Shown: positions 23,157 through 35,472, numbered from the stretch's first letter. The stretch: DNA of 64,000 nt from an uncultured Solirubrobacterales bacterium (GCA_963699325.1 CAVOTN010000003.1:154600-218599); one strand, 5' to 3'. Made by a program: numbers and translations. Notes: generated from the sequence alone by a model not told the origin.

Positions 23157-23699
23157 CTACGCCGGCATCGGCGCCGGCGCGCCCGGGCCGGCACCGGTTT
23201 CCGGCTCGGCGGACGTGCGTCCGGGCAGGTCGGTGGCGCGCTCGGCGTCCGACCGCTTGTGGTCGGCGTCGGCGTGGACGATCAGCACCGGGATCGGGCA
23301 GTGGTTGAGTGCGTAGTGGCTGACGCTTCCGAGTAGTGATGCGGTGAAGGCGCCGCGCCCGCGTGAGCCCATCACGAGCAGGTCGTAATCGGAGCTCTTG
23401 ACCCGGCCCATCAGGGCGTGCCGGATCGGCTTGCGGCTGATGATCGTGGTCACGGGGACGTCCTTCGGAACTCGCTTGACCGCCTGGCGCATGACGTCGA
23501 CGGCTTCCTTTTCGAGGTCGGCGGCGTTCAGGGCACACGCGCCGGCGGCCATCGCCGACGCGGCCCACACCGGGGGCTGGGTGATCGCGGTCAGGATCGT
23601 GAGGCGCGCCTGGTCGGCGCGGGCGATGTCGATCGCTTCGTCGAGGGCCCGGTCCGAATGGTCGGACCCGTCGATGCTGACGAGGATGTTGTGGAACAT
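23157..23699 (-). CDS. Universal stress protein
   Basis: ILVSIDGSDHS, DLLVMGSRGRG..LLGSVS, PVLIV. Confidence 0.95.
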   Translation of the reverse strand: MFHNILVSIDGSDHSDRALDEAIDIARADQARLTILTAITQPPVWAASAMAAGACALNAADLEKEAVDVMRQAVKRVPKDVPVTTIISRKPIRHALMGRVKSSDYDLLVMGSRGRGAFTASLLGSVSHYALNHCPIPVLIVHADADHKRSDAERATDLPGRTSAEPETGAGPGAPAPMPA

Positions 23700-26269: not shown

Positions 26270-26668
26270 ATGCCCCAGTACATGCTCTTGATCTACAACC
26301 CCGCGGACGCCGGCGAGGCGACCCCGGAGCAGCTCCAGGAGATCGGGTCCCGTTACGACGCGTACACGCAGAGCCTCGTGGAGGCCGGCGTCTTGGTCGG
26401 CGGCGACGCCCTCGAGCGCGCGGACACCGCGACCACCGTCCGCGAGCGCGACGGACAGACGCAGTTCACCGACGGCCCGTTCGCCGAGACCAAGGAGTTC
26501 CTGGCCGGCTACTACCTGCTCAACTGCCCGGATCTCGATACCGCGCTCGATCACGCAACCCGCCTGCCGGCGGTTGGGTTCGGCGGCTCGGTCGAAGTGC
26601 GGCCGGTGTGGGACCGGACGGGACCGATGGCGACCAGCCAGGCGCAGACGGCACAGGCGGGCGCGTAA
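26270..26668 (+). CDS. YciI family protein
   Basis: MPQYMLLIY, TDGPFAETKEFLAGYY, GSVEVRPV. Confidence 0.93.
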   Translation: MPQYMLLIYNPADAGEATPEQLQEIGSRYDAYTQSLVEAGVLVGGDALERADTATTVRERDGQTQFTDGPFAETKEFLAGYYLLNCPDLDTALDHATRLPAVGFGGSVEVRPVWDRTGPMATSQAQTAQAGA

Positions 26669-26682
26669 TCGCTCTGTCAGCC

Positions 26683-26734
26683 CGCGGGGGGCGGTTCGGG
26701 CTGGCCTGGAGGCCAACTCGACCGACCCCCCGCG
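26683..26734. repeat. Inverted repeat upstream of fabH
   Basis: cgcggggggcggt / accgaccccccgcg. Confidence 0.55.
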
Positions 26735-26794
26735 TGTCGGGTTTGGGCCGCGTGGCCGTTGGCATCGGCCACTTCTTTGGCGACTGTGTCATGC

Positions 26795-27835
26795 ATGAGC
26801 ACGACGATGCCAACGCTCCAGACCGACCTCGTGTCAGAGCACACGTTCGCTCCGGCCGCCGCAGCCGACGGCGCCGCGATCGCGTCCGTCGGCGCGAGCC
26901 TCCCGCGTAGGGTCGTTCCCAACTCCGAGATCGCCGCCCGGATCGGCGTCAGCGACGAGTGGATTGTTCGCCGCACCGGGATCCGCGCGCGGCACGTGGC
27001 CGAGCCGGACGAGCGCCTCACCACCCATGCGACCAACGCCGGCGCAGCCGCGCTCCGCCGCGCGGGGGTCTCGCCCGAGCAGGTCGACCTGGTGCTGGTC
27101 GCCACCACCACCCCCGACGAGGTCATGCCGAACGCGGCGCCGCTCGTCGCCCACGAGCTCGGCGCGGTGCGTGCCGGCGCGTTCGACATCGGCGCGGCGT
27201 GCACGGGCTTCCTGTCGGCACTGGCGGTCGGCACCGGCCAGATCGAGGCGGGCCGCGCCCAGTGCGTGCTCGTCATCGGCGCGGACCTGATGTCGCGGAT
27301 CCTCGACCCCGACGACCGCACGACCGCGGCCGTGTTCGCGGACGGCGCCGGCGCGGTGGTGCTCACCGCGACGGCGGAGACGAGCCGGATCGGGCCGATC
27401 GTGCTCGGCGCCGACGGCGCGGGCGCGGACCACATCATCGTCCCGCGCGATGAGGGCGTGATCCGGATGCGGGGCCACGAGACCTTCCGCGAAGCCGTCG
27501 CGCGCCTGTCGCTGGCCACGGTCCAGGCCGCGCGTGCCGCCGGCACGAGGCTCGACGACATCGACCTGTTCGTCTACCACCAGGCCAACGGGCGGATCCT
27601 GAGCACCGTCGGCGAGCGGCTGGGCCTGCCGCCCGACCGCGTCGTCGACTGCATCTCCGAGTACGGCAACACCTCGGCGGCCACGCTCCCGCTGGCGCTC
27701 GCGCACGTCGAGAGCGCCGGCCTGCTCAAGCCCGGCCATCGGGTGCTGCTGGGTGCGTTCGGTGCCGGCTTCACCTGGGGCGCCACGGTCGTTGAATGGG
27801 GCCCGCCCACCCCGCCCACCCCTGGTGCCGCATGA
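26795..27835 (+). CDS. fabH: Beta-ketoacyl-ACP synthase III
   Basis: RRTGIRAR, DIGAACTGF (Cys), FADGAGA, HQAN (His), YGNTSAA (Asn); start uncertain. Confidence 0.93.
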   Translation: MSTTMPTLQTDLVSEHTFAPAAAADGAAIASVGASLPRRVVPNSEIAARIGVSDEWIVRRTGIRARHVAEPDERLTTHATNAGAAALRRAGVSPEQVDLVLVATTTPDEVMPNAAPLVAHELGAVRAGAFDIGAACTGFLSALAVGTGQIEAGRAQCVLVIGADLMSRILDPDDRTTAAVFADGAGAVVLTATAETSRIGPIVLGADGAGADHIIVPRDEGVIRMRGHETFREAVARLSLATVQAARAAGTRLDDIDLFVYHQANGRILSTVGERLGLPPDRVVDCISEYGNTSAATLPLALAHVESAGLLKPGHRVLLGAFGAGFTWGATVVEWGPPTPPTPGAA

Positions 27836-29055
27836 GCGGCCGCGTCCTGATCACCGGCGTCGGCGCGGTGACGCCGCTCGGCGTCGGCGCATCCGAGCTT
27901 TACGAGGGCTGGACCGCGGGCCGTACCGGCATCGAGGACGGCCTCGGCGCGTGCAACGACTTCGACCCGACCGACTTCATGACGGTCAAGGAGGTCCGCC
28001 GCAGCGACCGGTTTGCGCAGCTGGCGATCGCGGCGAGCACCCAGGCCGTCGCCGACGCGGGCTGGGACGACGACGACCTGCCCACGGACCCGGCCGACAT
28101 CGGGTGCGTGATCGGGTCGGGCATCGGCGGCATGTGGACGTTCGAGAGCCAGTGCGACGTGCTCCGTGACCGGGGGCCCGAGCGCGTCTCGCCGCTCGCG
28201 ATCCCGCTGATCATGGGCAACGCCGCCGCAGGGCTCGTGGCGATGCGCCATCACCTCGGCGGACCGGTGTTCGGCGTCATGTCCGCGTGCGCGTCGGGCA
28301 CCCACGCGATCGGCGAGGCCATGCGGATGATCAGAACTGGAGAGGCACAGGCGGTCCTCGCGGGCGGAGCCGAGGCTACGCTCACTCCGCTCGCGAAGGC
28401 TGCTTTTGGCGCGATGGACGCGACCTCGCCGACCGGGATCTCGCGGCCGTTCGACGCCCGGCGAGACGGGTTCGTGATGGGCGAAGGCGCCGGCGTGCTC
28501 GTGCTCGAGTCCGAAGAGCTCGCCAAGGAGCGCGGCGCGCGGGTGCTCGGCGAGGTGCTCGGCTACGCCTCCACCGCCGACGCCCACCACCTGACCGCGC
28601 CCGAGCCCACCGGCCGCCCGGCGTCGCGAGCGATCACCCGCGCGATGGCGGACGCGGGCGTCACACCCGAGGGCGTTCACTACATCAACGCGCACGGAAC
28701 CTCGACGCCGCTCAACGACCGCTCGGAGACCGAAGCGATCAAGCTCGCGCTCGGGGAGCGCGCCTACGACATCCCGGTGTCCTCGACGAAGTCGGCGATC
28801 GGCCACCTCCTCGGAGCGGCCGGCGCGGTCGAGGCGATCGTCACGATCCTGGCGCTGAACGCCCGAGTGGCGCCGCCGACGCTTGGCTATGAGGAGCAGG
28901 AGGAGGGGCTCGACCTCGACTACGTCCCCGACGGCCCGCGACCGCTCGTCGTCAACGGCAATGGACATGGATCCCCACCCACCCTCGTCGCGCTCTCGAA
29001 CTCGTTCGGGTTCGGCGGACACAACGCCGTCCTGTGCCTCGGAGGTGCGTCGTGA
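27832..29055 (+). CDS. fabF: Beta-ketoacyl-ACP synthase II
   Basis: SACASG (Cys), GFVMGEGAG, INAHGTST, KSAIGHLLGAAG, SNSFGFGGHN; ATGA overlap. Confidence 0.94.
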   Translation: MSGRVLITGVGAVTPLGVGASELYEGWTAGRTGIEDGLGACNDFDPTDFMTVKEVRRSDRFAQLAIAASTQAVADAGWDDDDLPTDPADIGCVIGSGIGGMWTFESQCDVLRDRGPERVSPLAIPLIMGNAAAGLVAMRHHLGGPVFGVMSACASGTHAIGEAMRMIRTGEAQAVLAGGAEATLTPLAKAAFGAMDATSPTGISRPFDARRDGFVMGEGAGVLVLESEELAKERGARVLGEVLGYASTADAHHLTAPEPTGRPASRAITRAMADAGVTPEGVHYINAHGTSTPLNDRSETEAIKLALGERAYDIPVSSTKSAIGHLLGAAGAVEAIVTILALNARVAPPTLGYEEQEEGLDLDYVPDGPRPLVVNGNGHGSPPTLVALSNSFGFGGHNAVLCLGGAS

Positions 29056-30476
29056 GCGTCACGCTCGCACCCACCACCGAGACCCCGCTGAACCCGATCG
29101 AGCGACTCGAGACGCTGTGCGATCCGGGGACGCTCGAGCTCATCCGCTCCGAGGTCATCTCGCCGACGATGGGAGAGAAGGCTCGCGCCGGTGACGGCGT
29201 GGTCGCCGGCGCCGGCCTGATCGACGGCCGCCCGGTGTTCTGCTACGCCCAGGACTCGACCTACGCCGGCGGGTCGCTCGGCGAACAGCACGCGAACACG
29301 ATCGTGCGCGTGCTCGAGCTGGCGGACAAGGCTCGGGCCCCGGTCGTCGGCTTCGTGTCCTCCGGCGGCGCGCGGATGCAGGAGGGCGTGGCCGCGCTCG
29401 GCGGCTACGGGCGCATCTTCCACCGGATCGTCAAGCTGTCCGGCCGCGTCCCGCAGATCTCGATCATCACCGGCCTGTCCGCCGGCGGCGGCGCGTACTC
29501 GCCGGCGCTGACCGACTGGGTCGTGATGACCGAGCAGTCGAGCATGTTCCTGACCGGGCCGGGCGTCGTCCGCGACGCGCTCGGGGAGGACGTCACCGCC
29601 GACGAGCTCGGCGGCACCCGCGTCCACGAGCGCAACGGCGTCTGTCACTTCGTCGCGCCCACCGACGTCAATGCGGCGTACCTCGCGCGCGAGCTCCTCG
29701 GCTACCTGCCCGCGCATCGCGGCGCGCGGCCGCCGGTGCTGCCGGCGCGGCCGCCGCTCGGGCACGACCCGGCGGCGCTCGTGCCCGACGACCCCCGGAG
29801 CGTCTACGACGTCCGTGACGTCGCCCGGGCGCTCGTCGACGGCGGCGAGCTGCTCGAGGTGGCGGCGGGATGGGCGCGCAACCTCGTCACCGGGTTCGCG
29901 CGGCTCGACGGCCGCAGCGTCGGCGTGATCGCGAACCAGCCGCGCTACCTCGGCGGGATCATCGACTCCGACGCCGCGCAGAAGGGCGCGCGGTTCGTCA
30001 ACAAATGCAACGCGTTCGGCGTCCCGCTGGTCGTGCTCGTCGACACCCCGGGCTACATGCCGGGCACCAAGCAGGAGCGCAACGGCGTGATCCGGTTCGG
30101 CGCCGAGTTCGTGCACGCTTTCGCCGCGGCGGAGGTTCCGCGGGTGACGCTGATCCTGCGCAAGGCGTTCGGCGGCGCGTACATCACGATGAACTCCAAG
30201 GACCTCGGGGCCGACTACGTGTTCGCCTGGCCGAACGCCCAGATCGGCGTGATGGCCGCGAGGTCCGCCGTCGGGATCATCAACCGCCGGGAGCTCGAGG
30301 CGGCTGACGACCCCGACGCTGTTCGCGACGCCCTCGCCGAGAGCTACGCCGAGACGAACCTGTGCCCGCGGGTCGCTGCCGCCGGCGGTCACATCGATGA
30401 GCTGATCAGCCCCGTCCAGACGCGTTCGCGCCTGAGCTGGGCGCTTCGATCGCTGGCGCCGGAGCGCGGCGAATGA
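29052..30476 (+). CDS. Acyl-CoA carboxylase carboxyltransferase (beta) subunit
   Basis: GDGVVAG, GGSLG, SGGARMQEG, AGGGAYSPALTD, MFLTGP, IANQP, DTPGY..G, RKAFGGAY; GTGA overlap. Confidence 0.94.
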   Translation: MSVTLAPTTETPLNPIERLETLCDPGTLELIRSEVISPTMGEKARAGDGVVAGAGLIDGRPVFCYAQDSTYAGGSLGEQHANTIVRVLELADKARAPVVGFVSSGGARMQEGVAALGGYGRIFHRIVKLSGRVPQISIITGLSAGGGAYSPALTDWVVMTEQSSMFLTGPGVVRDALGEDVTADELGGTRVHERNGVCHFVAPTDVNAAYLARELLGYLPAHRGARPPVLPARPPLGHDPAALVPDDPRSVYDVRDVARALVDGGELLEVAAGWARNLVTGFARLDGRSVGVIANQPRYLGGIIDSDAAQKGARFVNKCNAFGVPLVVLVDTPGYMPGTKQERNGVIRFGAEFVHAFAAAEVPRVTLILRKAFGGAYITMNSKDLGADYVFAWPNAQIGVMAARSAVGIINRRELEAADDPDAVRDALAESYAETNLCPRVAAAGGHIDELISPVQTRSRLSWALRSLAPERGE

Positions 30477-31606
30477 CCCGGTGTGACGGACCCATACTGC
30501 TCACCGGCGCGACCGGGTTCGTCGGGATGGAGTTGCTCGCCCGGTACCTCGAGCGGACCGAGCGGCCGGTGCTCACGATCGTCCGCGCCGGCAGCGACGA
30601 GGACGCGCGCGGCCGGATCGATGCCGTGCTCACGAACCTGTTCGGGTATCGCGCGAGCCACTACGCCGATCGCGTGACCGCGGTCGCCGGTGACATGACG
30701 GCGCCTCGCCTCGGCCTGGATCCGGGGCGCTGGGATTTGCTCGCGGCGGAGTCGACGACGATCCTCCACTGCGCCGCCTCGGTGTCGTTCGGCCTCTCGC
30801 TCGAGGAAGCGAGGGCGATCAACGTCGAGGGAACCCGCCGGATGCTTCAGCTCGCCGGCCGGGCGCAGGAGTTCGGCGTGCTCGAGCGCTACGCCCAGGT
30901 CTCGACCGCATACGTCGCCGGCACCCACGCAGGCCCGTTCTGTGAACGCGACCTCGACGTCGGGCAGAGCTTCAACAACTCCTACGAGCAGTCGAAGTTC
31001 GAGTCCGAGCATCTCGTGCGCTCACATCCCGACCTGCCGTTCACGATCCTGCGCCCGAGCATCGTCGTCGGCGACCGCAACAGCGGCTGGACCTCCGCGT
31101 TCAACGTTCTCTACTGGCCGCTGCGGGCGCTCGCCCGCGGACTCTTCCCGGCGGTGCCGGCGACCGGCTCGTCGCCCGTCGACGTGGTCTCGATCGACTA
31201 CGTCGCCGACGGGATCCACGAGTTGTGCGAGTCGGCGGGCGGGATCCGGAAGACCTACCACCTCACCGCCGGCGCGGATGCGAGCACGATCGCCGAGATC
31301 GCCGAGCTCGCGAGCGGCTATTTCCAGCAGCCTCCGCCGCGGCTGCTCCCGCCGGCCGAGTTCATGTCGGCCGATCACGGAGTCGCTCGGTCGATGCTCG
31401 AGGAAGGGGCCATGTACTTCCCGTATTTCTCGGTCGCGACGACATTCGACGACGCGTTCACGCGCGCGCAACTCCAGCCGGCGGGGATCAGCGTCGCGCC
31501 GCTGCGCGAGTACATGAGCCGCCTGCTCGACTACGCGACGTGGAGCCGCTGGGGCAAGCACCCGATCGCGCGGGTCGACGCGGTGGCGGAGTTCGCCGGC
31601 GTCTGA
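30473..31606 (+). CDS. Fatty acyl/thioester reductase (NAD_binding_4, male-sterility type extended SDR)
   Basis: TGATGFVG, HCAASV, STAYVAG, YEQSKFESE, LRPSIV; ATGA overlap. Confidence 0.9.
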   Translation: MTRCDGPILLTGATGFVGMELLARYLERTERPVLTIVRAGSDEDARGRIDAVLTNLFGYRASHYADRVTAVAGDMTAPRLGLDPGRWDLLAAESTTILHCAASVSFGLSLEEARAINVEGTRRMLQLAGRAQEFGVLERYAQVSTAYVAGTHAGPFCERDLDVGQSFNNSYEQSKFESEHLVRSHPDLPFTILRPSIVVGDRNSGWTSAFNVLYWPLRALARGLFPAVPATGSSPVDVVSIDYVADGIHELCESAGGIRKTYHLTAGADASTIAEIAELASGYFQQPPPRLLPPAEFMSADHGVARSMLEEGAMYFPYFSVATTFDDAFTRAQLQPAGISVAPLREYMSRLLDYATWSRWGKHPIARVDAVAEFAGV

Positions 31607-31705
31607 GGCGGCCGTAGCCTCGAGCCGGATTTCCCGCCCCCCAGCCGGGGGGTTGACCCCCTGCGTCCGGTTGCGTGGTGCTGCCGGCGCGAGGATCCTC
31701 GAATC

Positions 31706-31936
31706 ATGGTCATGCTTGCCGACACGGCCAGGTTTCGCAGCGATGATCCGGATCCGCTCGTGATCGCGTCGCTCGCCTGCCCGATCTGCCTGCGCAGTGA
31801 CGAGATCGAGTGGCACGCGGCGCTCGACGGCTACGATCCGTCGGTCGAATGCCGATGCCCACGCTGCGAGGAGAGCTGGCGGGTGTACCTGGAGCCGCAG
31901 CAGGCGCTGCGGTTCGCGTTGATGGACCCGTTCTGA
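31706..31936 (+). CDS. Small Cys4 (zinc-ribbon-like) protein
   Basis: 76 aa; CPIC ... CRCPRC. Confidence 0.72.
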   Translation: MVMLADTARFRSDDPDPLVIASLACPICLRSDEIEWHAALDGYDPSVECRCPRCEESWRVYLEPQQALRFALMDPF

Positions 31937-33054
31937 GCCCAGGCTCAGAAGTCGGAATCGACGCGCTCGAGCTGTTCGTCGAGGTGCTGTCGCAGTCCGA
32001 CGGGGGCGAGCCGCTTGGCGCCGCGACCGGCGACGGGTTCTACGACCGGCTGTGCGACGCCGTCTGCCGGCTCGCGCGGATGCGAAGGGCGCTGATCTTC
32101 CGCTACGACAGCGCGGTCCGGCGCGTGCGCGCGGCGGGCGCGCACGGCCTGAACCTCGAGCATTTCGCCAACGCCTACGTGACCGTCGAGTCGGCGCCGA
32201 TCGCGGCCCAGTCGTTGCGCGAGGATCGCGTGATCGAGATCGAAGGGGACATGGCCGGCCAGTTCCCCGAGGAGTACGCGAGCATCTTCCCCGAGCCCGT
32301 CCGGCTGGTGTGCGCGCCGATGGCGGCGGCGGGCCGCGCGATGGGCGTGATCTTCGCCGACCGGCTGCTGACCGAACCGCCACTCGATGCCTCCGAGCGG
32401 CATCTGCTGTGGACGCTTGGCAAGGCCGCGGCGCTCGCCTCGGTCGCCCGGATCGTGGCCAAGCAGGCCGAGGAGGCGCAGCAGCTCGAGCAGCGGATCG
32501 ATCTTGCGCGCGACATCCACGAGGTCGTCATCCAGCGCCTGTTCGGAGTCTCGATGGCGCTCGACGGGGACGGCGATCTGCCGGCGGAGGCCCGCCAGCG
32601 CTGCGCGAGCGAGACCCAGGTGGCGCTCTCGGATCTGCGCACCGCGCTCCAGCGCCCGCTCGGCCGGGCTCCGCGGGCGACGCAGACGACGTTCGTGGCC
32701 GAGATCGAGCGGCTTGCGCGAGTGCACCCGGACCTCGGGGTGACGCTCGAAGCCGGTGGCGAGGGCGATGTGCCGCCCGCGCTCGAGCCGCTGGCGCAGT
32801 CGGTGCTCGCCGAGGCTGTGCGCAACGCCCACAAGCACGCCAACCCGAGCCGGGTGACCGTGCGGATCGCGCGAGACGACGGCGCGTTCGTGCTCGAGGT
32901 CGCCAACGACGGGCTCAGCGGCGGCCGGCACCGCGCCGGCATGGGGCTGCGGCTGGCCGCGCTGGAGGCGCTGCAGAGCGGCGGCGTGGTCGAGTTCGGC
33001 GAGCGCGAGCCCGGCACCTGGCAGGTTCGGCTGGTGGTGCCCGATGCGCTCTGA
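31933..33054 (+). CDS. Soluble GAF-domain histidine kinase (HisKA_3 type); start uncertain, CTG 31933 proposed
   Basis: GAF region; ARDIHEVVIQRLFG H-box; EAVRNAHKHA N-box; GMGL G2 box; no TM segment. Confidence 0.88.
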   Translation: MSPGSEVGIDALELFVEVLSQSDGGEPLGAATGDGFYDRLCDAVCRLARMRRALIFRYDSAVRRVRAAGAHGLNLEHFANAYVTVESAPIAAQSLREDRVIEIEGDMAGQFPEEYASIFPEPVRLVCAPMAAAGRAMGVIFADRLLTEPPLDASERHLLWTLGKAAALASVARIVAKQAEEAQQLEQRIDLARDIHEVVIQRLFGVSMALDGDGDLPAEARQRCASETQVALSDLRTALQRPLGRAPRATQTTFVAEIERLARVHPDLGVTLEAGGEGDVPPALEPLAQSVLAEAVRNAHKHANPSRVTVRIARDDGAFVLEVANDGLSGGRHRAGMGLRLAALEALQSGGVVEFGEREPGTWQVRLVVPDAL

Positions 33055-33058
33055 GCCG

Positions 33059-33139
33059 GCGCTCCGGAGTGGTCCCAGATGACCTCCGACTCTGCGCTCC
33101 GGAGTGGTCCCAGATGACCTCCGACTCCGCGCTCCGGAG
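33059..33139 (+). repeat. 35-bp tandem duplication (2.3 copies) covering RBS and start of the response regulator
   Basis: gcgctccggagtggtcccagatgacctccgactc(t/c) at 33059 and 33094, partial third copy at 33129. Confidence 0.92.
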
Positions 33140-33737
33140 CCCTGAGAAGCTGAGCGTGCTCGTGGTCGACGATCACGACGTCGTGCACTGGGGGATCCGG
33201 CTGATGCTGACCCAGCAGCCGTGGGTCGATCGCTGCCTGAGCGCCCACTCGGGCGAGGAGGCGCTCGCGCTGGTCGCACGCTATCGACCGCACGTGGCGC
33301 TGGTCGACCTGTTCATCGGCGAGGAATCGGGTGCGGAGATCTGCGAGCAGCTGCGCGCGGCCGAGCCGATGACTCGGGTGCTGCTGTTCTCGGGCGCCGG
33401 CGAGATCTCGCCCCACGCCGCCCGCGCCGCGGGCGCGTCGGGCTTCGCCTACAAGGACTGGCCGGCGCGGAAGATCGCGAGCGCGGTGCGCCTGGTCGGC
33501 CTCGGCAAGACCGTGTTCGACCATCAGGACCGGCCGGTCGCCATGGGCCTGTCCGACCGCGAGCGCGACGTGCTCAACCTGATGGCCTCGGGCGCCACCA
33601 ACCCCGAGATCGCCGAGCAGCTCCACCTGTCCAAGCACACGGTCAAGGAGCACACGAGCGCGGTGTATCGCAAGCTCGGCGTTCGCAACCGGACCGAGGC
33701 GGTCCAGCGCGGCCAGCGGCTCGGGTTGCTGTCGTAG
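33114..33737 (+). CDS. NarL/LuxR family response regulator
   Basis: VVDDH, VALVDL, YK; LSDRERDVL..MASGATNPEIAEQLHLSKHTVKEH HTH. Confidence 0.95.
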   Translation: MTSDSALRSPEKLSVLVVDDHDVVHWGIRLMLTQQPWVDRCLSAHSGEEALALVARYRPHVALVDLFIGEESGAEICEQLRAAEPMTRVLLFSGAGEISPHAARAAGASGFAYKDWPARKIASAVRLVGLGKTVFDHQDRPVAMGLSDRERDVLNLMASGATNPEIAEQLHLSKHTVKEHTSAVYRKLGVRNRTEAVQRGQRLGLLS

Positions 33738-33780: not shown

Positions 33781-35472
33781 CTGGACGCGGCGCTGAGCGA
33801 GATCGCACGTTTTCTCGCGGGCCGCGCGCCGTTCGACGCGCTCTCGCCCGAGGAGCTCGGGGAGGTCGCGTCGCAGACCGAGATCGAGTTCTACGTGACG
33901 GGCGCCGCGATCCTGACCGAGGACGGTGGACCGGTCACGTTCCTGCGCGTGATCCACTCGGGGGCGGTCGACATCATCCACGACGGGCGGCTACTCGACA
34001 TGCTCGGCGTGGGCGACACGTTCGGTCACGCCGCGATGCTGTCGGGGCTTCCCCCGGGGTTCGAGGCGCGGGCCGCCGAGGACACGCTGTGCTACCGGAT
34101 CCCGGTGAGCGTCGCGCGGCCGTTGTTAGACCGCGTCAGGGAGCGCTCGGTTGAGGTCGTCGGCGGGGCTCCGGAGCACCGGCCGGTCACGCGGTTGCTC
34201 CGTTCCCCGACCGTGCGCTGCGAGCCGATGGAGAGCATCCGCGAGGTCGCGCGGCGGATGACCGATACCGGCGCGAGCTCCGCGATCGTCGACCTGCGCA
34301 GCGGCGGGTTCGGGATCGTGACCGATCGAGACATCCGGACGAAGATCGTCGCAGCGGGCCTGCCGCTGAGCGCGCCGGTGGCGACCGTCATGACCACACC
34401 GGTGTTCACGGTCGGGCCCGACCGGCTCGGCGGCGACGTGCTGTTCGAGCTGCTCGAGCGCGGCATCCGCCACGCGCCGGTCGTCACCGAAACCGGGCAG
34501 CTGGTCGGCGTGATCGAGGACGCCGACCTGTTCCCGGCGCAGTCCCGTTCGTGGTTTGGGGCCCGGCGGTCGATCTCGCGCGCCGGTTCGACCGAGGATT
34601 TGGCCGCGGTGGCGCGGCGTCTGCCCGAGGTGGTCGCGGACCTGCACGCCGCGCGCCTGCGCGCGCCCGAGGTGGTCCGGGTGCTCTCAGCGCTCGTCGA
34701 CGCGCTGACCACGCGGGCGCTCGAGTTGGTCGCGCCGGCGCCGGCGTCGGATGGGCTCGTATGGGTGGCGCTCGGCAGCCAGGCGCGGCGGGAGCTCACG
34801 CCGGCATCGATCGCGCGCGGCGCGGTGGTGTGTCATGAGCCGCCGGCCGAGGAGTGGACGCGCTCGGTGGGGTCGGTGTTGCGCGCGTGTGGGTTCCCGG
34901 GCGAGGTGGTCGCGAGGAGCACCGACGAGTGGAGCCACAGCGACGGCGAGGACGAGCTGTCGCTGTCCGTACTGATCGAACGGAGGGCTCTGTGGGGGAC
35001 ACCGGTCGATCCACTGCCGGCCGCCGACGGGGCTGTCCGCGAGCGGATCATCGCGGCACTGGCGCGGCGAGCGTTGGCTACCGTTCCGCCGACAGGTTTC
35101 GACGCCGACTCCGTGCTCGAGGCGGGCGGCGGGCGCAGCGCTCGGCTGGACATCCGCCGGGACGCGGTGGCGCCGATCGTCGAGCTCGCGCGCTGGGGCT
35201 CGGCGGCCGCCGGCGTGGTCGAGGGTTCGACGCCGGAGCGGCTGCTGGCGGCGGCTTCGAGCGGTGTCCTGAGCGAGGCGGACGGGCGGACGCTCGCCGA
35301 CGCGTTCGAGCTCGCGCTCGAGTTGCGGATCGGCCATCACATGGGGCGGATCGCCGCCGGCCAGCCGCCGGACGACGAGATCGATCCCGCCGAGATCAGC
35401 CCGCTGATGCGCGACCACCTGCGGGATGTGTTCCGGGCGGTGACGACGGTGCAGCGGCGGTTGCGCTCGTGA
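33781..35472 (+). CDS. cNMP-binding/CBS/DUF294 nucleotidyltransferase-like protein, catalytic residues degenerate; CTG start proposed
   Basis: RAPFDAL, GDTFGHAAML (cNMP); GIVTDRDIR, GIRHAPV (CBS); LGSQARRELT; C-terminal DUF294_C-like. Confidence 0.88.
   Translation: MDAALSEIARFLAGRAPFDALSPEELGEVASQTEIEFYVTGAAILTEDGGPVTFLRVIHSGAVDIIHDGRLLDMLGVGDTFGHAAMLSGLPPGFEARAAEDTLCYRIPVSVARPLLDRVRERSVEVVGGAPEHRPVTRLLRSPTVRCEPMESIREVARRMTDTGASSAIVDLRSGGFGIVTDRDIRTKIVAAGLPLSAPVATVMTTPVFTVGPDRLGGDVLFELLERGIRHAPVVTETGQLVGVIEDADLFPAQSRSWFGARRSISRAGSTEDLAAVARRLPEVVADLHAARLRAPEVVRVLSALVDALTTRALELVAPAPASDGLVWVALGSQARRELTPASIARGAVVCHEPPAEEWTRSVGSVLRACGFPGEVVARSTDEWSHSDGEDELSLSVLIERRALWGTPVDPLPAADGAVRERIIAALARRALATVPPTGFDADSVLEAGGGRSARLDIRRDAVAPIVELARWGSAAAGVVEGSTPERLLAAASSGVLSEADGRTLADAFELALELRIGHHMGRIAAGQPPDDEIDPAEISPLMRDHLRDVFRAVTTVQRRLRS

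Follow-up and report, generated by a model that had tools for sequence, protein, structure and literature searches.

The window analysed here is a 64,000-nt stretch of DNA (contig C3:154600-218599) from the genome of an uncultured Solirubrobacterales bacterium (5.7 Mb in 26 contigs; G+C ~71%), whose nearest relatives are metagenome-assembled genomes of the Solirubrobacterales / Solirubrobacteraceae. It carries an operon of four lipid-synthesis genes, encoding FabH, FabF, a carboxyltransferase (CT), and a stand-alone reductase (RED), followed on the same strand by a signalling cassette made up of a microprotein (C4), a sensor kinase (HK), and a response regulator (RR). We propose that the operon and the cassette belong to one autoregulated lipid-homeostasis regulon rather than to a signalling-lipid pathway, a reading that the comparison of sequences makes probable. 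The argument is built on gene content, paralogy, synteny, and the rarity, position, and conservation of a palindromic motif; from these we infer regulator binding, the sign of regulation, the transcription starts, the substrate and product of RED, and the signal.

An earlier, sequence-only reading had seen a dedicated lipid-signal pathway, possibly sensed by the adjacent kinase, with the two blocks linked by adjacency only. The blocks are indeed adjacent, and they are syntenic, but the link is stronger than that: a conserved cis element is common to both. The dedicated pathway itself was not supported, as the housekeeping genes of type II fatty acid synthesis (FAS-II) have this kinase/regulator family and this palindrome at their flanks throughout the order. 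It is further disfavoured because RED merely ends the housekeeping FAS-II operon in relatives with a single copy of the system. The main features, in window positions, are as follows.

26726..26741, plus strand: predicted type-B operator, CCCCCCGCGTGTCGGG, with TTT directly after it, 69 nt ahead of the ATG of FabH
26795-27835, plus strand: FabH paralogue (β-ketoacyl-acyl carrier protein (ACP) synthase III), above the Pfam and NCBIfam cut-offs
27832-29055, plus strand: FabF paralogue (β-ketoacyl-ACP synthase II), ATGA overlap onto FabH
29052-30476, plus strand: CT, acyl-CoA carboxylase β subunit of AccD6 length, GTGA overlap
30473-31606, plus strand: RED, stand-alone NAD_binding_4 thioester reductase of 377 residues, final gene of the operon, ATGA overlap
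31607-31705: gap of 99 bp between RED and C4
31637..31652, no strand assigned: predicted type-A operator, CCCCCCAGCCGGGGGG, perfectly palindromic, 69 nt ahead of the ATG of C4
31706-31936, plus strand: C4, Cys-rich, zinc-ribbon-like microprotein of 76 residues, with invariant Cys and under purifying selection
31933-33054, plus strand: HK, soluble GAF / HisKA_3-like / HATPase sensor kinase; start uncertain, CTG 31933 in a CTGA overlap
33114-33737, plus strand: RR, NarL/FixJ-type response regulator (Response_reg and GerE domains)

The Window Operon and the Core FAS-II Operon

FabH exceeds its NCBIfam cut-offs (TIGR00747, 321.3 bits vs 292.1; NF006829, 356.8 vs 249), its catalytic triad is complete (Cys in AACTG, His in HQAN, and Asn in GNTS), and its top matches in the PDB are canonical FabH enzymes. 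FabF scores 464.8 against a cut-off of 387 for NF005589 and falls slightly under that of the equivalog TIGR03150 (478.3 vs 493.75); the Cys-His-His motifs ACASG, HGTST, and GHLLGAAG were found. CT matches PF01039 over residues 22-474 with 485 bits. Its PDB matches are PccB, AccD5, and AccD6, the last of these (4fb8) from end to end (CT 12-473 vs 15-466), including a short AccD6-like N-terminus. Judged by these matches, CT is an ordinary PccB/AccD6-like β subunit, and the suggestion that the pathway makes its own, possibly branched, extender found nothing in favour of branching. RED matches PF07993 with 180.3 bits against a cut-off of 20.1 and has both the GxxGxxG motif (GATGFVG) and the YxxxK motif (YEQSK).

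The junctions between the four genes read, in order, ATGA, GTGA, and ATGA. The open reading frames (ORFs), junctions, and motifs were all verified, bearing out the description of four overlapping genes with intact catalytic residues. Equally, a domain scan of 26795-33737 detected no ACP, FabD, FabG, FabZ, FabI, biotin carboxylase, or ligase domains, so that the absences noted before (ACP, biotin carboxylase, FabG/Z/I, and acyl-CoA ligase) are upheld. The downstream block was largely as described, with a gap of about 100 bp, a kinase without transmembrane helices, and a NarL regulator; C4, taken to have four Cys, has five that are invariant, and the RR start, placed at 33117, is corrected to the ATG at 33114.

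A complete core FAS-II operon, fabD-fabH-fabG-acpP-fabF-CT-fabI, was found by tblastn of the whole genome at C22:795935-802261. The ACP of this operon bears a DIDSLD motif, and an E. coli ACP query matches contig C22 alone in the genome. The window FabH, FabF, and CT are 63%, 64%, and 60% identical to the core copies. A housekeeping FAS-II operon would hold acpP, fabD, and fabG and be the sole copy in its genome, and the window operon is neither. The worry that these might be the only fabH and fabF copies is thus removed by the core locus and its acpP. Since the window FabH and FabF are not the sole copies, they belong to an accessory set that must borrow the core AcpP; this agrees with the proposal that the pathway draws on the primary ACP.

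The signalling genes have counterparts at the same place. HK has a single close paralogue in the genome, with 49% identity. RR likewise has one, RR2, with 64% identity, the next best of ~20 NarL-type regulators reaching 35%. Both paralogues are near the core operon on C22, 1-2 kb away from its fabD. Because the sole close paralogues of HK and RR adjoin the core fabD, the unit consisting of a sensor pair and FAS genes is present twice.

Synteny and Origin of the Window Locus

For synteny, 80 loci from 80 Solirubrobacterales species were retrieved with the reductase as query. The order RED-C4-HK-RR is retained in 77-80 of them, so the two-component system, whose synteny had been put forward as a check, stays with the reductase in essentially all of the species. 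The genes before RED vary: FabH-FabF-CT in 38 loci (the number that have a FabF), otherwise FabH-CT, FabH alone, or nothing. With upstream content so variable and RED-C4-HK-RR so persistent, the sensor pair is tied more tightly to the reductase than to the ketosynthases. No conserved tailoring, export, or receptor genes were seen near the locus in these 80 loci.

The kinase family has two copies in the genus of the window and one elsewhere in the order; it was not found outside the order at E <= 1e-30. In single-copy genomes, which belong to two other genera, the operon is fabD-fabH-fabG-acpP-fabF-CT-fabI-RED, with the kinase/regulator pair adjoining. It follows that RED was ancestrally the last gene of the housekeeping FAS-II operon. 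In trees, both copies of HK, FabH, and CT are paralogues that arose within the family; the window-type kinase clusters with the single-copy kinases, and the core-locus FabH clusters with the single-copy FabH. Given that the pair flanks fabD...fabI-RED in single-copy relatives, the window locus is, on comparative grounds, a duplicated and trimmed FAS-II unit that has lost fabD, fabG, acpP, and fabI, and the core copy has lost RED.

A Palindrome at Both Copies

A palindrome, CCCCCC-N4-GGGGGG-TT, surfaced from the alignment of the 140 nt upstream of C4 in 78 loci. This type-A site lies 63-70 nt before the C4 start in 66 of the 80 loci, and its arms are invariant and its loop variable. Dinucleotide-preserving shuffles give an expectation of 0.01 type-A sites per window. 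The 5.7-Mb genome contains three, and a reversed-pattern control gave zero. A raw count of palindromes was discarded as an argument, as simple base composition would predict ~23 per genome; the case for rarity is based on the shuffles, the reversed control, and chiefly the orthologous positions.

Of the three genomic sites, one belongs to the C4 promoter, one lies where fabD and an SDR gene diverge, and one precedes a Zn-ribbon gene on C2. The fabD site is within a divergent region of 79 bp at C22:802262-802340, 70 nt upstream of the fabD ATG, and in three relatives with a resolved start the distance is 70-72 nt. The fabD promoters of six relatives have the layout palindrome, 16 nt, TGTATCC, 17 nt, TAGGGT, 8-9 nt, start codon, which matches the architecture of the C4 promoter. 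Six further genomes contain 2-4 type-A copies each. When the source genome is included, 17 of the 19 sites belong to one of four classes of promoter, those of C4, of fabD/SDR, of the Zn-ribbon gene, and, in a single genome, of a CT gene. In single-copy relatives, palindromes stand upstream of both fabD and the kinase.

The site also accompanies the cassette away from FAS genes. A distant C4-HK-RR cassette amid β-oxidation genes, with no FAS neighbours, has CCCCCCGGGCGGGGGG 66 nt upstream of C4, and a second distant C4 cassette has a degenerate copy of the palindrome at 60 nt. The palindrome thus travels with the regulator cassette, as an autoregulatory operator would. Within the order, the exact palindrome occurs in 14 of 18 genomes with the kinase versus one of seven without it, in a set of genomes that are not phylogenetically independent.

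The conservation pattern argues for sequence-specific recognition of the DNA by a protein over an RNA hairpin or terminator, since the arms never vary and the loop does, and since the asymmetric type-B form described below breaks the hairpin yet is conserved. Moreover, the fabD palindrome cannot be a terminator because it is located between divergent start codons. The likely binder is the regulator family to which RR and RR2 belong. This assignment is suggested by the siting of the palindrome in single-copy genomes, by the distant cassette, by the co-occurrence, and by the recognition helix, HT(V/I)KE(H/Y)xSxxYRKL, which scarcely differs between RR and RR2 and is conserved among the order's orthologues.

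The C2 palindrome is ~260 nt upstream of a gene for a 178-aa protein (L085 4136-4933; genome C2:48136-48932). This protein carries a CxxC...CxxC ribbon at its N-terminus and belongs to no Pfam family. Between palindrome and gene the sequence is richer in AT and apparently does not code, a layout kept in two relatives (loci L099 and L100). An RNA gene was considered as an account of this palindrome and dropped, as an Rfam scan gave just a tRNA upstream. A near-palindrome, CCCCCCAGTAAGGGGG, was seen at C18:88344; ~400 nt downstream of it are two genes that look, by eye, PhaC-like and SDR, and this could be a weaker member of the regulon with a link to carbon storage.

The Type-B Variant and the Predicted Promoters

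The window operon has its own form of the site. FabH and a desaturase gene each have a conserved variant, ACCCCCCGnnTGTCGGGTTT, 69 nt upstream, and its type-B consensus is A-CCCCCC-G-nn-T-GTCGGG-TTT. In 75 of 77 loci a type-B site stands ahead of the RED operon's first gene; this holds for operons that begin with FabH and for those in which, FabH being absent, RED comes first. The source genome has four copies of CCCCCCN4GTCGGG, and type-B sites number essentially one per genome in five relatives. The desaturase copy, CCCGACAGCCGGGGGG, lies at C22:696128-696143 in the opposite orientation, 69 nt upstream of the ATG of a Δ9-type desaturase gene (C22 695181-696074, minus strand, with an HRLLTHR box). 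This site is common to a divergent proline-iminopeptidase-like gene and is kept in the closest relative, L106.

Two putative promoters were read from the sequence:

26759..26788, plus strand: putative FabH-operon promoter (TTGGCA, 18-nt spacer, ACTGTG, 6 nt to the ATG)
31671..31699, plus strand: putative C4-HK-RR promoter (poor -35 TTGCGT, 17 nt, GATCCT, 6 nt to the ATG)

In the FabH-operon promoter region, the blocks GTTGGCATC and (A/C)GTGT are conserved across loci. In the 78 C4 upstream regions, the conserved blocks are GTTGC and GCGAG(C/G)AT(C/G)CTCGA, and the -10 GATCCT is TANNNT-like. This layout predicts a leaderless C4-HK-RR mRNA with the palindrome centred near -61.

At 26752-26772, a G/C hairpin of 7 bp with a T-run (TTCTTTGG) after it lies between the putative FabH -35 and -10, 23 nt upstream of the start codon. 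Either an attenuator or roadblock function or chance could account for it (2 terminator-like matches vs 1.5 expected).

The Proteins of the Sensor Cassette

C4 is a real gene under purifying selection, as shown by its codon-position entropy of 0.56/0.42/1.08 across 78 orthologues. The five invariant Cys residues, C25, C28, C49, C51, and C54, form the pattern CPxC ... CxCxxC. The AF2 model (pLDDT 76) has three strands plus helices and is zinc-ribbon-like; the best fold matches are zinc ribbons (ELOF1, Trm112, and NrdR) with E values of 0.05 or worse, and no Pfam family matches C4 at cut-off. Among 1.84 billion proteins, C4 has 205 cluster representatives, nearly all of ~55-145 residues. The contigs of four distant members were looked up, and the two that are informative again place C4 beside a GAF kinase and a NarL regulator.

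Between the C4 stop and the conserved HK N-terminus GIDALELF (31933-31960) there is no ATG, GTG, or TTG. The sole candidate start there is the CTG at 31933; in more distant relatives an ATG follows the C4 stop by ~20 nt. In HK the H-box reads DIHE, and the N box and G boxes are present as well. Pfam identifies GAF and HATPase_c (24.8 bits vs a cut-off of 26.4), and HisKA_3 is sub-threshold (19.4 bits vs 24). The N-terminal half is one GAF domain throughout, modelled by AF2 as a soluble α/β fold with no transmembrane sensor helices. The ATPase domains of DevS/DosT are the top PDB sequence matches. Fold matches are to bacteriophytochrome and DesK, with DesKC among the top for the kinase core, and the whole-model fold search was set aside as a clue to the GAF ligand because its matches are architecture-level only. 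Numbered from V at 31951, the invariant Cys are C35, C39, and C121 in the GAF domain and C218 in the dimerisation helix. No His in the GAF domain is invariant among 39 orthologues (H65 and H71 are 72-77% conserved), and no sequence match to the DosS/T GAF structures was found. DosS-type haem sensing by HK was therefore rejected, given the single GAF domain and the lack of an invariant His.

RR matches PF00072 with 57.8 bits and PF00196 with 71.5 bits and has the expected DD, D (VALVDLF), S/T, and K residues. Its top PDB match is DevR/DosR at 1e-26, followed by VraR and DesR. The NCBIfam names "MadS/MadR" for the pair were not adopted, the scores being far under cut-off; MadRS is an enterococcal membrane-peptide defence system. 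One further feature lies between the kinase stop and the regulator start:

33059..33125, plus strand: 35-bp tandem duplication (GCGCTCCGGAGTGGTCCCAGATGACCTCCGAC, twice)

The duplication makes a 12-codon, out-of-frame upstream mini-ORF whose TGA overlaps the ATG at 33114 (ATGA). The 35-bp insert is missing in five close relatives, in which the kinase and regulator genes overlap, and it is present as a single copy in L022.

The Reductase

RED is of thioester-reductase type by PF07993 and by its PDB matches, so the operon does end in an enzyme of the reductive-release type, as had been noted. The top matches are terminal reductases of polyketide synthases (PKS), MxaA (9e-28) and 8v1x, the R domain of a type I PKS. 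Much more remote is the solved fatty acyl-CoA reductase 7eoz, which matches at just 1.7e-9 over 160 residues. Relatives of RED carry the source name "thioester reductase-like protein". The likeness to carrier-dependent reductases and the position in a FAS-II operon favour acyl-ACP as the substrate. The genome has at least three WS/DGAT genes, whose products could use fatty alcohol as a substrate.

Other Paralogues and Neighbouring Genes

Fragments of a third FabH (55-61% identity, two frames) and of a third FabF (54-71% identity, two frames) are found at the starts of contigs C8 and C7 (L003 151-2136 and L004 9-673). They adjoin an FA_hydroxylase-family gene and a DUF6812 gene and may be a third lipid locus split by the assembly or pseudogenes. 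A second RED paralogue, on C23 (L002 7948-9228; 47% identity, 426-aa ORF), is beside a Ser/Thr protein kinase gene with a weak, sub-threshold CHRD-domain match; there are no FAS genes around it. Neither the FabH/FabF fragments nor the C23 paralogue were retained as regulon members, as no operator was found there.

Three neighbours of the window locus are kept beside it in many of the 80 species loci: a universal stress protein gene at 23157-23699 (minus strand; 55 loci), a YCII-domain gene at 26270-26668 (plus strand; 47 loci), and a cNMP-CBS-DUF294 nucleotidyltransferase-like gene at 33895-35472 (plus strand; 53 loci).

Proposed Regulon

We propose that the window contains two transcription units of one lipid-homeostasis regulon, unit 1 from 26726 to 31606 and unit 2 from 31637 to 33737. 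Unit 1 would be a trimmed FAS-II copy that keeps an initiating and an elongating ketosynthase, a carboxyltransferase supplying malonyl-CoA, and a terminal thioester reductase. It would rely on the core AcpP, FabD, FabG, dehydratase, and FabI. Its most likely effect would be to raise chain initiation, elongation, and malonyl-CoA supply and to divert acyl-ACP, by reduction, to fatty aldehyde or alcohol, from which wax esters or other reduced lipids could be made.

Unit 2 would encode signalling in three parts, with C4 as a Cys-rich microprotein resembling a zinc ribbon, HK as a cytoplasmic GAF kinase that bears Cys, and RR as a regulator of NarL type. The kinase/regulator pair, helped by C4, would answer a cytoplasmic signal. 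The invariant Cys of C4 and the GAF domain hint, weakly, that this signal is redox- or metal-based rather than DosS-type haem. Phosphorylated RR, together with the 64%-identical RR2, is proposed to bind the 16-bp CCCCCC-N4-GGGGGG site and the variant CCCCCC-GnnT-GTCGGG. The operator would be centred ~61 bp upstream of predicted leaderless or near-leaderless starts, a class-I-like activator position. Four activation targets are predicted: the cassette's own operon, the FabH-FabF-CT-RED operon, the core fabD operon, and the Δ9-type desaturase gene.

It is tempting to go further and see in C4, HK, and RR an undescribed three-component master regulator of FAS-II in Solirubrobacterales, acting through the C6-N4-G6 operator at ~-61 and leaderless promoters, with the carrier-dependent RED as an integral last step of FAS-II. 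This wider proposal is tentative, and we would place its chances somewhat short of even. If it is true, reduced acyl chains (fatty alcohols or aldehydes) would be a major regulated lipid output of these abundant soil bacteria. To our knowledge, the known regulators of fatty acid synthesis in Actinobacteria are one-component (FasR and MabR); no two-component system that directly regulates a FAS-II operon there is known to us, and literature searches turned up neither one of that kind nor any report on the present cassette or on reduced lipids in Solirubrobacterales. For an abundant and almost unstudied soil order, the locus offers a testable regulon with a 16-bp operator, four target promoters, and a defined sensor cassette. 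A thioester reductase within a primary fatty-acid operon predicts unusual reduced lipids and may bear on soil lipid biomarkers and carbon storage. The duplicated, trimmed copy in the genus is also a clear case of an enzyme set and its regulator duplicating and diverging jointly.

Alternative Explanations

The self-contained circuit, in which a dedicated pathway makes a diffusible or signalling lipid (an aldehyde or alcohol) and the adjacent kinase senses the product, draws on the ACP-less, stand-alone FabH and FabF, the reductive release enzyme, and the adjoining cytoplasmic, ligand-binding GAF kinase; the tight synteny of reductase and sensor pair also speaks for it. However, the same kinase/regulator family and operator flank housekeeping FAS-II, and RED is within that operon in single-copy genomes. 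FabH, FabF, and CT are canonical primary-metabolism types that are variably present while RED and the pair persist, and the tailoring, export, and receptor genes that such a circuit might need are not conserved nearby. We regard it as improbable and as the least supported of the readings, since the same system appears to govern housekeeping lipid synthesis. The main rival is instead a dormancy or redox switch like DosS/DosT-DosR, responding to oxygen, redox, or nitric oxide, with lipid genes as only one output, wax ester or triacylglycerol as stores of reducing power and carbon, and no monitoring of lipid status. It departs from the favoured reading only in the signal and in how broad the regulon is. 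In its favour, the solved structure nearest to RR is DevR/DosR and those nearest to the kinase ATPase domain are DevS/DosT, the GAF kinase is soluble, invariant Cys are present in the GAF domain and C4, 55 of 80 loci have a universal stress protein gene upstream, and WS/DGAT genes are in the genome. Yet HK has one GAF domain rather than two and no invariant haem His. The operator is C6-N4-G6, whereas the DosR box has its G-rich part before its C-rich part. Finally, each genome has 2-4 sites, nearly all at lipid genes or the cassette, which is far below what a dormancy regulon needs. A switch of this kind is unlikely, though it should be kept in mind more than the lipid-signal circuit.

The palindrome could also be bound by another factor, or be a structural DNA or RNA element, in which case the pair would be a co-duplicated bystander and the window operon a set of redundant isozymes. 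The palindrome is assigned to the pair from sequence, G/C hairpins of this form are terminator-like in other families, and a segmental duplication would copy neighbours whatever their function. These points are countered by the palindrome 66 nt upstream of a distant C4-HK-RR cassette without FAS neighbours, by its position before the kinase in single-copy genomes, by the fixed spacing to start codons, the invariant arms, and the conserved asymmetric variant, and by its absence from six of seven kinase-less genomes of the order. We regard this alternative, too, as improbable. In weighing the autoregulated regulon, several points count against it. The type-A site is missing in 14 of 80 loci, in which RED abuts C4 with no intergenic region, and the exact palindrome is missing from four kinase-bearing genomes. 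Its assignment to RR comes from co-localisation and co-occurrence; another factor could bind it. In other families of the class, exact C6-GAAC-G6 copies are ordinary hairpins with no relation to FAS genes. It follows that the C6-N4-G6 pattern alone is not diagnostic, and the operator claim is confined to this order. Deep conservation of the fabD-type palindrome was accordingly abandoned as an argument: exact CCCCCCGAACGGGGGG copies occur in other families (L107-L110) with no FAS or sensor genes nearby, and one copy outside the order is plainly a long terminator hairpin. The promoters, leaderless starts, and -61 position are inferred from conserved sequence. The desaturase site was seen just in the source genome and its closest relative, and its -10 geometry is unfit for a leaderless start. 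RED is under the curated thioester-reductase cut-off (TIGR01746, 145.5 vs 213.35 bits), and the role given to C4 is a guess. Some kinase-less genomes of the order are also without a detectable FabH; these are G143, G065, and G053, which are 96-100% complete and have none by TIGR00747 at E <= 0.001.

Comparison with Known Systems

Small proteins that modulate sensor kinases include MgrB (PhoQ), Sda (KinA), and NreA (NreB). C4 resembles them in being co-encoded, and probably translationally coupled, with its kinase, their interaction being putative; unlike them, it has no sequence or significant fold kinship to any of the three. R domains of PKS and nonribosomal peptide synthetases (such as MxaA) and bacterial fatty acyl-CoA/ACP reductases (Maqu_2220, FcrA, and Rv3391) release a thioester by reducing it to an aldehyde or alcohol. 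RED has the same NAD_binding_4 fold. In contrast to the MxaA-type R domains, it is a stand-alone protein of 377 residues in a FAS-II operon rather than a PKS domain, and its match to the solved fatty acyl-CoA reductase is weak, as is its score for the TIGR01746 family, which is under cut-off.

DosS/DosT-DosR of M. tuberculosis, the regulon of which takes in storage-lipid genes, shares with the window cassette a soluble GAF kinase, HisKA_3-like in the case of HK, and a NarL-type regulator, and its proteins are the nearest solved sequence relatives. DosS and DosT have two GAF domains, the first with a haem-binding proximal His, whereas HK has a single GAF domain and no invariant haem His. The system proposed here also differs in its Cys-rich microprotein partner, in its operator, and in a predicted regulon that is very small and centred on lipid synthesis. 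B. subtilis DesK-DesR likewise pairs a HisKA_3-type kinase with a NarL-type regulator that acts on a desaturase, and here a desaturase gene has a predicted operator. However, DesK senses through five transmembrane helices; HK has none and instead combines a cytoplasmic GAF domain with a partner microprotein. The proposed targets of RR are FAS-II synthesis genes and not a desaturase alone.

In M. tuberculosis, the FAS-II operon is fabD-acpM-kasA-kasB-accD6, and its regulator, MabR, is encoded directly upstream. The Solirubrobacterales operons are similar in having clustered FAS-II genes, a short AccD6-type CT right after the elongating ketosynthase, and a regulator beside fabD. MabR and FasR are one-component regulators, whereas the candidate regulator here is a two-component pair of a GAF kinase and a NarL-type protein with a C6-N4-G6 operator. 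Unlike the M. tuberculosis operon, that of single-copy relatives ends in fabI and a thioester reductase, and the source genome carries a second, ACP-less copy.

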